Below, one piece after another: positions 25,221 through 28,727 of a stretch of 64,000 nucleotides of DNA. Origin of the DNA: an uncultured Actinomycetota bacterium (GTDB taxonomy: Bacteria > Actinomycetota > Actinomycetes > Actinomycetales > Dermatophilaceae); NCBI GenBank assembly GCA_963713345.1, contig CAVQLI010000008.1, forward strand, positions 530,606 through 594,605, read 5' to 3'. The notes under the pieces were generated by a model that did no database searches, had not been told where the DNA came from, and saw only the letters and a list, made by a program, of their open reading frames with translations. A program made the translations under genes and the position numbers. How positions within the stretch are numbered: the first letter of the stretch is position 1; each line of letters begins with the position of its first letter.

Positions 25221-25512
25221 TGCCGCCGCTACCGCCGATCGCCGTCCGCCCCGCCGCCGACCCTGACCCGACCCCACGTCGGCCCGCGATCCGTCCCTGC
25301 CGACGTCCTGATCCGACGACCCGACCCCCTACGCCACCGCTCCTAGGGCCCAGCGGAGCGTCGTAACCCGCCCCATGTACGGGACCAGCATCGCCCTTCT
25401 CACGGTTGTGAGAAGTGGTCAGGCGGGGGGCATCAAGGGGGCAGAGGCAAGTCTCACAGACGAAACCCTCGCCACCATGTCACCGTTTGCGCTGGTCAGA
25501 CGGGGTGTCGGT

Positions 25513-25588
25513 TGGTGGAGCTGCGGGGATTCGAACCCCGGGCCTTCTCATTGCGAACGAGACGCGCTACCAACTGCGCCACAGCCCC
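25513..25588 (-). tRNA. tRNA-Ala(CGC)
   Basis: GGGGCTGTGGCGCAGTTGGTAGCGCGTCTCGTTCGCAATGAGAAGGCCCGGGGTTCGAATCCCCGCAGCTCCACCA; cloverleaf, CGC anticodon, encoded CCA. Confidence 0.97.
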
Positions 25589-25756
25589 AAGTGCGGACCA
25601 CACGATAACACCCAGCGGCACCCGTCCGAGACCACGACCGAGGCACCCGGAGGCCTCGGGGGCCTGCCTCATCGGAGGGTTCGCCGCGTCGGCGACCGAA
25701 CTAGCGTGAGGAGCGCTCCCGACGCCGTGAGCAGCCCCAACCCTGGAGGGACGTCG

Positions 25757-26872
25757 ATGAAGACCAAGGCCGCCGTCGTGTACGAGTTCGGCAAACCGAT
25801 CGAGATCGAGGAGCTGGACCTCGACGGACCCAAGGCGGGTGAGGTGCTGATCCGCTACACGTATGCGGGTCTGTGCCACTCCGATGTCCACGTCGCGCAC
25901 GGCGACCTCGAGGCCCGCCTGCCGATGGTGCTCGGCCACGAGGGCGCGGGGATCATCGAGGAGGTCGGGCCCGGCGTGACCCGGGTCGCGGTCGGCGACC
26001 ACGTCGTCTGCTCCTTCATCCCGAACTGCGGTACCTGCCGGTACTGCGCCACGGGACGCCAGTCGATCTGCGACATGGGCGCGACGATCCTCGAGGGGTA
26101 CCTGCCAGGACCGCGCTTCCCCATCACCGGTCCGCGCGGCGACTACGGCGCGATGTGCATGCTCGGGACGTTCAGCCAGTACGGCGTCATCAGCCAGACC
26201 TCGTGCGTCAAGGTCGACGACGACCTCCCGCTCGACAAGGCGGTCCTCGTCGGCTGCGGGGTACCGACCGGATGGGGTTCCGCCGTCAACTCCGCCGCGC
26301 TCAAGGCCGGCGACACGGCGGTGATCTTCGGCGTCGGTGGCATCGGGATCAACGCCGTCCAGGGCGCCCGGCACGCGGGGGCCAAGAACGTCATCGCCAT
26401 CGACCCGCTGGAGAACAAGCGTGAGAAGGCCATGGAGCTCGGCGCGACCCATGCCTTCGCCACCGCCGAGGAGGCCATGCCGGTCCTCACCGAGCTCACC
26501 CGCGGCCAGATGGCCGACGCGGCGATCCTCACCCCGGGCCTGGTGACCTCGGAGATCGTCACCCAGGGGTTCCACTCGGTCGGCAAGGGCGGCGTGGTCG
26601 TCGTCACCGGGCTCAACAAGCTCATGGAGCAGACCATCGAGCTGCCCGGAACGATCCTCACCCTCTGGCGCAAGACGGTGAAGGGCAGCCTGTTCGGCGA
26701 CTGCAACCCGACGACCGACATCCCGAAGATCCTCGGGCTCTACCAGTCCGGCGACCTCAAGCTCGACGAGCTCATCACGCGTACCTACACGCTCGAGCAG
26801 GTCCAAGAGGGGTACGACGACCTCCTGGCCGGCAAGAACGTGCGCGGGATCGTGGTCCACGACCACTCGTGA
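25757..26872 (+). CDS. Zn-dependent NDMA-type (nicotinoprotein, Rxyl_3153-like) alcohol dehydrogenase
   Basis: AGLCHSD, LGHEGAG, CGTCRYCATGRQSIC, GCGVPTGWGSA, GVGGIG and GSLFG motifs; subfamily assignment from recall. Confidence 0.85.
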   Translation: MKTKAAVVYEFGKPIEIEELDLDGPKAGEVLIRYTYAGLCHSDVHVAHGDLEARLPMVLGHEGAGIIEEVGPGVTRVAVGDHVVCSFIPNCGTCRYCATGRQSICDMGATILEGYLPGPRFPITGPRGDYGAMCMLGTFSQYGVISQTSCVKVDDDLPLDKAVLVGCGVPTGWGSAVNSAALKAGDTAVIFGVGGIGINAVQGARHAGAKNVIAIDPLENKREKAMELGATHAFATAEEAMPVLTELTRGQMADAAILTPGLVTSEIVTQGFHSVGKGGVVVVTGLNKLMEQTIELPGTILTLWRKTVKGSLFGDCNPTTDIPKILGLYQSGDLKLDELITRTYTLEQVQEGYDDLLAGKNVRGIVVHDHS

Positions 26873-27786
26873 GCCTGACCGAGATCGACGAGTATGCGGG
26901 TCCGGCCGGCGTCGTCGGCCGGATCCGCGAGACCGAACTGCTCCGGGCGGCCCTCGACTGCGGCGCGCACGTCGTGCTCGAGGGCCCGCCCGGCACCGGC
27001 AAGAGCACCCTGCTGCGCGCCGTCGCCGCCTCGACCGGACGGCCGTTCCACTTCGTCGAGGGCAACGCCGACCTCACCCCGAGCCGGCTGACCGGTCACT
27101 TCGACCCGGCCCAGGTGCTGAGCCGCGGCTACCAGCCCGACGTCTACGTCGACGGACCTCTCATCGCGGCGCTCCGCGCCGGGGCGTTGCTCTACCTCGA
27201 GGAGCTGAACCGGGTCCCCGAGGAGACGCTGAACGTACTGCTCACCGTCATGTCGGAGGCCGAGCTGACCGTGCCGCGGCTCGGGACGATCCGGGCCGAA
27301 CCAGGGTTCCGGCTGGTCGCCGCCATGAACCCGTTCGACGCCGTCGGCACCGCCCGGATCTCCTCCGCGGTCTACGACCGGACCTGCCGGATCGCCATGG
27401 GATACCAGTCGGCCACCGAGGAGGAGCGGATCACCGCACTGCGCTCGGTCGTCGTCGACGACGTGTGGCGGGCCAAGGTCGTCGACCTCGTCCGCCGGAC
27501 CCGCGACCACTCCGACATCCGGGTCGGGTCGTCGGTGCGCGGCGCGATCGACCTCGTCAAGGTCGCGGCGTCGCTGGCCCGCCTCCGGGGCACCTCGACC
27601 GACGACTGGCGGGTCGGCCTCGACGCGGCCCTCGTCGCGCTCTCCGGCCGGATCCGCCTCTCGGAGTCCAGCCGCCGCGCGCCCGAGGCCGTTGTCACCG
27701 AGCTCTACACGAGCGTCTTCGGGGCCGACCCCGCGGCGGGAGACGACTCGCATACGGAAGAGGAACCCCCGCCGGGGGAAGCCTGA
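26869..27786 (+). CDS. MoxR-family AAA+ ATPase
   Basis: Walker A GPPGTGKS, Walker B LYLEELNR, AAMNP sensor, AVYDR; acidic/Pro-rich tail DDSHTEEEPPPG. Confidence 0.92.
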   Translation: MSLTEIDEYAGPAGVVGRIRETELLRAALDCGAHVVLEGPPGTGKSTLLRAVAASTGRPFHFVEGNADLTPSRLTGHFDPAQVLSRGYQPDVYVDGPLIAALRAGALLYLEELNRVPEETLNVLLTVMSEAELTVPRLGTIRAEPGFRLVAAMNPFDAVGTARISSAVYDRTCRIAMGYQSATEEERITALRSVVVDDVWRAKVVDLVRRTRDHSDIRVGSSVRGAIDLVKVAASLARLRGTSTDDWRVGLDAALVALSGRIRLSESSRRAPEAVVTELYTSVFGADPAAGDDSHTEEEPPPGEA

Positions 27787-28727
27787 GCCCGTCCCCGCCC
27801 GCGCGGCGGGACGGGCCGACCTCACCGCAGCGCAAGAACCGGGCCACCTCCCGGACCGTGGGCCGGGCCGAGCTGTCTCGACGCCCCAACTTCGCCGAGG
27901 TCTCCCCGGAGGTCGGCGTCATCGACGAGGAGGCCCTCGGCCGGCTGGCTGTGGAGGACCTCGACGCGGCCGTGACACTGCTGGCCGACATGGTCCACGC
28001 CACCGACGAGGTCCTGCGCGACGAGGCCCGCCGGCTTGCGGCGCGCCTCGTCCTCGACCGGGTGCGGCACGGACGGCCCGCCTCGACCGGGCTCGGTCGG
28101 CTGCGGAGCGTCCGGGCCGAGGAGGGTGCCGACCTCGACGTCGACGCGTCCCTCGACGCGCTCACCGACGCACGAGCCGCCGGCCGGCACCCGGACCTGC
28201 GCGACCTCCGTGCGCACGCCTGGGCGCGGCCCAAGCTCGCGGTCTGCCTGCTGGTCGACACCTCCGGGTCGATGGCCGGCGAGCGCCTCGCCACGGCCTC
28301 GCTCGCGGTCGCGGCGTGCGCGCTGCGCGCGCGGGAGGAGTATGCGGTGCTGGCCTTCGCGAAGTCGGTCACCGTCGTGCGCGACCTGCAGGACTCCCCT
28401 CGGACTGAGGACGTCGTCGACGCCACGCTGGCGCTGCGTGGCCACGGTCTCACCGGCCTGGCCGGAGCCCTGGACCGCGCCGCCGAGACCCTCAGCCGGT
28501 CCCGGGCGTCCCGTCGAGTGGTGGTGCTGCTGTCCGACTGTCGCGCGACGGACGGGGTCGATCCCGTGCCGGCGGCGGCGGGCCTCGCCGAGCTGCTCGT
28601 CGTGGCCCCGGAGGGTGACGCCGACGATGCCAGCGTCCTGGCCGCGGCCGCCGATGCCCGGCTCGCGCTGGTCAGCCGGCCCAGCGACGTCGTCGAGGCC
28701 CTGAACGAGCTGCTCCGAACCGGATGA
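27783..28727 (+). CDS. vWA domain protein (start unresolved; possibly translated as a -1 frameshift fusion)
   Basis: MIDAS LLVDTSGSM, LRGHGLT and VLLSD motifs; frame is -1 relative to the AAA+ gene; no SD-preceded start near the junction. Confidence 0.85.
   Translation: MSPSPPARRDGPTSPQRKNRATSRTVGRAELSRRPNFAEVSPEVGVIDEEALGRLAVEDLDAAVTLLADMVHATDEVLRDEARRLAARLVLDRVRHGRPASTGLGRLRSVRAEEGADLDVDASLDALTDARAAGRHPDLRDLRAHAWARPKLAVCLLVDTSGSMAGERLATASLAVAACALRAREEYAVLAFAKSVTVVRDLQDSPRTEDVVDATLALRGHGLTGLAGALDRAAETLSRSRASRRVVVLLSDCRATDGVDPVPAAAGLAELLVVAPEGDADDASVLAAAADARLALVSRPSDVVEALNELLRTG

Follow-up and report, generated by a model that had tools for sequence, protein, structure and literature searches.

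A candidate -1 ribosomal frameshift between a NorQ/CbbQ-like AAA+ ATPase and a vWA protein encoded next to an alcohol dehydrogenase in Actinomycetota

Introduction

Are an AAA+ ATPase open reading frame (ORF) and the vWA ORF that follows it two genes, or one gene whose second half is reached by a -1 ribosomal frameshift? The question is raised by a stretch of 64,000 nucleotides (nt) of contig CAVQLI010000008.1 (assembly GCA_963713345.1, Dermatophilaceae), hereafter called the window, in which the two ORFs meet downstream of an alcohol dehydrogenase (ADH) gene. An earlier note on this DNA had proposed that a Shine-Dalgarno (SD)-like sequence, a run of five G and a stem-loop at positions 27756-27816 direct such a shift, and all of these elements are present at those coordinates (Table 1). 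Judging from the comparison of homologous sequences presented here, we consider it quite probable that the two ORFs of the window form one gene recoded by a -1 frameshift, and the probability is higher still for the family as a whole.

Results

Frame and heptamer at the ATPase-vWA junctions

In total, about 70 homologous loci were gathered from the genus, the class and the phylum; the ATPase and the vWA domain are split between two frames in 51 of them and share one frame in 12. In each locus we determined where the ATPase frame ends and where homology to the vWA protein begins. In every split locus (51/51) the vWA frame is offset by -1 from that of the ATPase, and a slippery heptamer stands in register where the variable tail of the ATPase ends. 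When five of the fused loci, described below, are counted together with the split ones (56 loci), the heptamer types are G_GGA_AAA (30), G_GGG_GGA (15), G_GGG_GAA (7), C_CCA_AAA (3) and A_AAA_AAA (1), so that canonical heptamers stand at the homologous place in 49 of the 56. The background level in the same AAA+ genes is 21 in-register X_XXY_YYZ sequences in 8,160 codons. In most of the Actinomycetes loci the heptamer is followed by one codon and then by the stop. The residues encoded by the heptamer vary (GE, GG, GK or PK) while the nucleotide pattern XXXYYYZ is kept, always with a G as the next base, and this suggests that selection acts on the nucleotides and not on the residues.

The G_GGG_GAA heptamer of the window is found identically in six other loci (L007-L011 and L030), these seven belonging to the genus of the window with the addition of L030. 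The more distant vWA proteins among them are 49-59% identical to that of the window, and the distance to the hairpin is the same. G_GGG_GAA can be read as the middle term of the series GGGAAAA, GGGGGAA, GGGGGGA.

Elements of the putative frameshift site in the window

The codons of the AAA+ frame over the junction are CCG GGG GAA GCC TGA. After a slip of one base, the P-site tRNA on GGG would re-pair perfectly, and the A-site tRNA of GAA would pair with GGA through a G-U at the middle position, in agreement with the description of the heptamer as non-canonical, with imperfect re-pairing in the A site. A synonymous form of GGGGGAA that would break the slip is of the GGCGGCAA type. The vWA frame is -1 relative to the AAA+ frame and, as had been claimed, runs open across the junction, from 27465 to 28727 on the DNA. 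The predicted product lengths also hold: the AAA+ ORF has 305 amino acids (aa), and the long product would have 303 + 316 = 619 aa, with the junction ...EEEPPPG/GSLSPSPP... (the slash marks the shift). The tail of the AAA+ protein is indeed acidic and proline-rich (...DDSHTEEEPPPGEA).

When folded as positions 27781-27822, the hairpin has a free energy of -25.7 kcal/mol (z = -2.4), and 3 of 200 shuffled sequences were equally stable. A wider stretch of 101 nt folded no more stably than shuffled sequences at its G+C content (z = -0.6), and no Rfam family matched the junction region. The SD-like sequence GGAAGAGGA forms a weak duplex with the 3' end of the 16S rRNA (-8.2 kcal/mol), which ranks in the top 21% of background blocks.

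Conservation of the hairpin and of the SD-like element

A perfect stem of at least 5 bp, beginning 3-9 nt past the heptamer, was found in 52 of the 56 loci, and in 33 the distance is exactly 6 nt. The stems comprise 24 distinct 5' arms, for example GCCCGCC, GCCCGTCG, GCGCCCC, CGCCCGAG, GCCCC and CGCCGCC. Within the clade with G-type heptamers (22 sequences), 99.2% of the alignment cells of the stem are paired, and a double change from C-G to U-A is present in five sequences. A covariance model of the cassette gave a single match per locus, with E-values down to 3e-12 and of 3.7e-4 for the window. The rank of the minimum free energy of 55-nt segments within each locus was unremarkable in these G+C-rich genomes, and only the positional test is informative. 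Additionally, a duplex with the anti-SD sequence of -10 kcal/mol or lower was found in about 19 of 26 ADH-linked loci, mostly between -15 and -5 from the heptamer. By comparison, the window apparently holds a weak example of this element, and its relatives hold stronger ones.

The alignment of homologous junctions that the earlier note had called for thus returned a conserved -1 offset, a slippery motif and a hairpin. Homologues with an SD-led vWA start and neither slip site nor hairpin, which that note would have taken as a refutation, were not seen; five heptamer types accompanied by a hairpin were found, and no conserved start.

Entry into the vWA frame

At the stop of the ATPase frame, the overlapping codon of the vWA frame is usually CTG and occasionally GTG; loci with a TAG or TAA stop have GTA or CTA instead. 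No ATG, GTG or TTG stands between the upstream stop of the -1 frame and the first conserved vWA residue in 23 of the 51 split loci. A stop of the -1 frame lies at most 40 nt upstream of the heptamer in 30 of the 51, and in L017-L028 the interval in which a shift is permitted shrinks to 16-19 nt, that is, the heptamer and the spacer. The first canonical start past the junction in the window, GTG at 27858, has no purine-rich stretch ahead of it, as had been noted, and, beyond the window, is shared by the closest relatives (L006-L008) alone. The annotation of many vWA homologues begins with 'MSPP...', which aligns with the CTG at 27783 of the window.

Ordinary coupling through an ATGA-type stop/start overlap was considered as a description of the junction and rejected, as the DNA shows CTG, GTA or CTA in most loci together with the conserved heptamer. 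The G+C content at third codon positions (GC3) of the window between the stop and the conserved vWA core is 0.96; across the loci, GC3 in this interval did not separate the frames.

In-frame fusions and polarity

In 12 loci the ATPase and the vWA domain are encoded in one frame. Five of these (L031-L034 and L065) keep G_GGA_AAA, and four of the five keep the hairpin. There the -1 frame closes after 2-8 codons, and ribosomes that slip would make the short form. The other seven fused loci have none of the five family heptamers; three of them are without any in-register heptamer, and the remaining four hold only other G/C-type heptamers and no hairpin. These seven look like plain fusions. Such a pattern of polarity would be expected if selection favoured the making of two products by one gene.

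A 407-aa protein of a close relative (P0007) was considered as a further in-frame fusion and rejected, as breaks in the ADH, AAA+ and transporter genes of its contig are indel noise of a long-read assembly. Several frame breaks within single genes were also observed in L005, L008, L003 and L031, which are close relatives known from long-read metagenome assemblies.

Chance level in the same genome

The source genome is a 14-contig assembly with a completeness of 92%. A scan of 3,526 coding-like ORF ends identified an in-register heptamer within the last five codon pairs in 36, and a hairpin of at least 6 bp accompanies the heptamer in seven of these. A heptamer, a hairpin and a -1 frame open for at least 200 codons occur together at four of the 3,526 ends, the window included. 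At one of the other three, the downstream -1 frame has non-coding composition. The remaining two (C6:137565 on the + strand and C9:147279 on the - strand of G000) have the heptamers C_CCG_GGG and G_GGC_CCG, a hairpin of 6-7 bp and a long coding-like -1 frame; one of them is an ordinary GTGA overlap, and at the other the downstream frame probably starts from a GTG located two codons beyond the stop. The pattern at a single locus is therefore rare and suggestive rather than decisive, and it is the comparative evidence that carries the case. Two other MoxR-like ATPase genes of this genome, L041 (C10:179893-183402) and L042 (C14:384435-387905), end without a heptamer, in a GTGA overlap that supplies an ordinary start codon for the next gene.

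Protein families and predicted structure

The Walker A motif of the ATPase is intact (GPPGTGKS). Its top sequence matches in the PDB are the AAA domains of midasin (E = 4.7e-40), and the closest bacterial chains of solved structure are NorQ (E = 4.7e-14) and CbbQ; BchI is a far weaker match (E = 1.3e-4). AAA_5 is the top Pfam family, and the match to PF01078 is limited to residues 15-52. The ChlD model TIGR02031 gave 39 bits on the locus against a cut-off of 499.55, and a search for CobN/ChlH with PF02514 gave no match in this 92%-complete genome, whereas control genomes were matched.

The part encoded in the -1 frame begins with a linker of about 27 residues, which is followed by a helical domain and then by a vWA domain with the metal ion-dependent adhesion site (MIDAS). 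Its AlphaFold model, built with 39 homologues, has a predicted local distance difference test score (pLDDT) of 92.4, with residues 1-27 as coil and residues 109-316 in a vWA fold. The MIDAS motif DTSGS is present, and D161, S163, G164 and S165 are invariant across the 39 homologues. In a Foldseek comparison, the vWA part matched the NorD chains of NorQD complexes best (E = 3.6e-10) and the MIDAS domain of Rea1/midasin next. By these sequence and model comparisons, the ATPase and the vWA protein are a MoxR-class AAA+/vWA pair of the NorQD and CbbQO type and not chlD, because the ChlD model missed the locus, the ATPase is NorQ/CbbQ-like, CobN was not found and the conserved neighbour is an ADH.

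Gene organization of the locus

The coordinates of the features are collected in Table 1. The ADH gene, for which TIGR03989 gave 518.8 bits (cut-off 440), is the immediate 5' neighbour of the AAA+ gene in almost every orthologous locus. In the window, a GTGA (26869-26872) combines the ADH stop with the AAA+ start, and an ATGA (28724-28727) likewise combines the vWA stop with the start of an AI-2E transporter gene. All four genes, for the ADH, the ATPase, the vWA protein and the transporter, are probably on one transcript and co-translated. The transporter is retained 3' of the vWA gene in the closest relatives only. The genome also encodes the mycofactocin maturase MftC. It is important to mention that the ORF at 25415-26872 is too long for an ADH; homology and a likely start (MKTKAAV...) are found at 25757, and the first 114 codons of the long ORF (25415-25756) are probably untranslated.

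Table 1. Features of the ADH-ATPase-vWA locus in the window (positions count from the first letter of the window).
Feature	Position	Strand	Remarks
N,N-dimethyl-4-nitrosoaniline (NDMA)-dependent (nicotinoprotein-type) Zn alcohol dehydrogenase	25757..26872	+	TIGR03989; Pfam ADH_N and ADH_zinc_N
Predicted short product: AAA_5 (MoxR/NorQ/CbbQ-like) ATPase	26869..27786	+	305 aa, zero-frame ORF; PF07728, E = 2.6e-27
SD-like sequence GGAAGAGG	27756..27763	+	10 nt before the shift site
Putative shift site G_GGG_GAA	27774..27780	+	In the register of the AAA+ frame; G5 run at 27774-27778
-1-frame part of the predicted long product	27777..28727	+	316 codons and stop; matches to VWA_2 and VWA
Zero-frame stop TGA	27784..27786	+	One codon past the heptamer, within the 6-nt spacer GCCTGA
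Hairpin, 9 bp + bulged C + 3 bp	27787..27816	+	Begins 6 nt past the heptamer

Loci in other gene contexts

Four paralogous AAA-vWA gene pairs (L036-L039; vWA identity 33-38%) are without a neighbouring ADH. They have G_GGA_AAA followed by four codons and a TAG that lies in the hairpin loop, so that the same recoding layout recurs in a different gene context. In the complete genome of the cultured Rhodococcus sp. X156 (CP034766.1; L075, 1455-1535), the junction reads G_GGG_GGA GCG TGA and is followed by a GCCCGC/GCGGGC hairpin; the vWA gene is annotated there from a GTG that overlaps the stop, and downstream are genes for a 2Fe-2S ferredoxin-type subunit and for a molybdenum hydroxylase (aldehyde oxidoreductase-like) subunit.

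Discussion

One recoded gene and its alternatives

Several observations weigh against the interpretation of the two ORFs as one recoded gene. The heptamer of the window does not follow the X_XXY_YYZ pattern and is the least canonical of the family. V_VV.A_AA.R heptamers, including G_GGA_AAA and C_CCA_AAA, are among the most efficient in Escherichia coli, but all-G heptamers shift poorly there without a strong stimulator, G_GG.G_GG.U reaching 0.018% (PMC4066793). The loci are related, and the counts given above are not independent. The basal stem of the hairpin is near-invariant in the close clade, with four of its six basal pairs constant, and the covariation rests on one pair. Comparable combinations of heptamer, hairpin and open -1 frame stand at four of the 3,526 gene ends of the scan. 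Moreover, in 28 of the 51 split loci at least one GTG, ATG or TTG occurs after the junction and ahead of the conserved vWA core, and in these independent initiation of the vWA protein is possible. In the window a CTG (27783) lies 4 nt past the G run, and it is conserved in all seven G_GGG_GAA loci. G runs can act as an SD sequence and cause weak initiation at a nearby non-AUG codon, as was found in E. coli for G_GG.G plus a further G and a nearby AUA (PMC4066793).

These last points belong to the alternative of two separate genes, with the vWA protein initiated at CTG 27783 (the G run serving as SD), by re-initiation, or at GTG 27858, an alternative that we regard as rather improbable. Four-base stop/start overlaps at a -1 offset are common, as in the two other MoxR-like genes of this genome, and in some homologues a GTG occupies exactly the place of CTG 27783 and is annotated as the start of 'MSPP...'. 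On the other hand, the GTA and CTA codons found at this place in the loci with TAG or TAA are not starts, and C_CCA_AAA is not SD-like. In some loci the zero-frame stop lies 9-14 codons downstream, and the heptamer and the hairpin still stay together; the in-frame fusions keep the heptamer with no need of a start, and GTG 27858 is poorly retained. Initiation at CTG 27783 is thus a minor rival for the G_GGG_GAA clade. Slippage of the RNA polymerase on the G run, by which some mRNAs would gain one G and encode the fusion, would lead to the same two proteins, and runs of five or six G are present at the site in the window and in 21 relatives. Some sites of the frameshifted chlD genes (fs-chlD) are long A runs, the efficiency of which grows with run length (PMC3711429). 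For the window we hold this route to be very unlikely. Strict codon register and a hairpin at 6 nt are features of ribosomal frameshifting, and the longest homopolymer in the G_GGA_AAA (30) and C_CCA_AAA (3) loci is 4 nt. A homopolymer of 4 nt is, as a rule, too short for productive transcriptional slippage. For the family, transcriptional slippage is unlikely on sequence grounds because most of its sites have no homopolymer longer than this. Least credible of all is an assembly error, with six G and a plain fusion as the true state, or a decaying vWA pseudogene. The assembly is incomplete and in 14 contigs, and the close long-read relatives L005, L008, L031 and L003 show indel noise, but the G5-AA junction with a -1 vWA frame recurs in six further genomes, of different assemblies (L007-L011 and L030), and the suggestion of the earlier note that one G is missing did not hold. 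The -1 offset is shared by every split locus, and the vWA frame is intact over 316 codons, with an invariant MIDAS and a confidently predicted fold.

Proposed mechanism

If the two ORFs are one recoded gene, most ribosomes would read CCG GGG GAA GCC and stop at the TGA at 27784, releasing the 305-aa NorQ/CbbQ-like ATPase. In a fraction of them, the hairpin 6 nt further on, possibly together with a contact to the SD-like sequence, would cause a pause at the shift site, where they would slip one base back on G_GGG_GAA and go on in the -1 frame. The resulting protein of about 619 aa would carry the ATPase, a flexible proline-rich tether, the helical domain and the vWA/MIDAS domain. The short and long forms may then co-assemble in one AAA+ ring, in which the efficiency of frameshifting would set the number of tethered vWA adaptors. 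By analogy with NorQD and CbbQO, such a module may remodel or load the neighbouring NDMA-dependent ADH, and on the basis of the genomic linkage this upstream ADH is likely the client of the ATPase-vWA module.

A wider proposal is put forward only tentatively, and we judge its chances to be a little short of even. It would see an ancient cassette across Actinomycetota that determines in what proportion subunits with and without a tethered vWA adaptor enter a NorQD-like AAA+ ring serving mycofactocin-type ADHs. Both polarities would keep the slip site, and the series of heptamers would have been rewritten under G+C pressure while remaining functional, the non-canonical site included, in high-G+C actinobacterial ribosomes.

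Comparison with known systems

NorQ-NorD and CbbQ-CbbO are the nearest protein families, and each pair is the operon partner of a client enzyme. In these systems the two proteins are separate polypeptides with their own starts, whereas recoding would link the adaptor described here covalently to an ATPase subunit, with an alcohol dehydrogenase as the putative client. Midasin/Rea1 likewise carries AAA_5 and MIDAS/vWA domains on one polypeptide, with a long, flexible and acidic linker, but this very large eukaryotic protein has six AAA modules in fusion and is made without recoding.

In the dnaX gene of E. coli, which encodes tau and gamma, a heptamer is preceded by an SD-like sequence at a distance of about 10 nt and followed by a hairpin at about 6 nt, and the long and short AAA+ proteins co-assemble. 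The putative three-part cassette of the window resembles this arrangement, and the fused relatives L031-L034 share the polarity of dnaX, in which the shift gives the short form. In the window, however, the polarity is reversed, and the shift would give the long form; moreover, the heptamer of dnaX is A_AAA_AAG, and its protein family and function are unrelated. The polarity of the window is that of the orfA-orfB genes of IS3/IS911 (PMC4066793), in which the shift gives a long fusion, the zero-frame stop lies just past the heptamer, downstream structure and an upstream SD sequence stimulate, and heptamers of low efficiency are tolerated. Those genes belong to a mobile element, whereas the present locus is a chromosomal metabolic operon.

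In chlD genes of Mg/Co chelatase, a -1 frameshift between the AAA+ and vWA parts has been validated with reporters, with an efficiency of 10-63% at A-rich sites (PMC3711429, PMC5009743, PMC9227772). Two of these papers (Antonov et al. 2013, PMC3711429; Kuznetsov et al. 2022, PMC9227772) confirm the claim of the earlier note that such frameshifting yields two subunits, one short and one long. As described in the same papers and in the review PMC5009743, fs-chlD resembles what is proposed for the present locus in the -1 shift within the AAA+/vWA linker, in its short AAA+ and long AAA+-linker-vWA products, in its usual annotation as two adjacent genes, in the existence of in-frame fusions in other species and in the downstream RNA structure. 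It differs in that the AAA+ protein here is of the AAA_5 and not of the ChlI/BchI type, the partner is an NDMA-dependent ADH and no CobN/ChlH was found; additionally, fs-chlD sites are A_AAA_AAR or poly-A, whereas those described here are G-rich or G_GGA_AAA. The locus is thus best described as an analogue of fs-chlD and not as a member of it. A literature search returned no description of frameshifting in this ATPase-vWA family, the overlap with the actinobacterial 'chlD' set of Antonov 2020 (Mol Biol Evol) being unchecked.

Significance

If the proposed recoding is correct, hundreds of actinobacterial pairs of an 'AAA ATPase' and a 'vWA protein' are mis-annotated as two genes, the vWA protein often being truncated or extended. 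The natural G-only and non-canonical heptamers could be used for studies of frameshifting in high-G+C bacteria. If both polarities keep the slip site, selection on two products from one gene would be shown. The chlD-type logic of two subunits from one gene would then reach a second AAA+ lineage, the NorQ/CbbQ-like one, with a different client, and the tethering of a vWA adaptor to a fraction of the ring subunits would be suggested as a recurrent design. For the organisms themselves, the finding, if true, points to an uncharacterised maturation or reactivation factor for the nicotinoprotein ADHs of the mycofactocin system.

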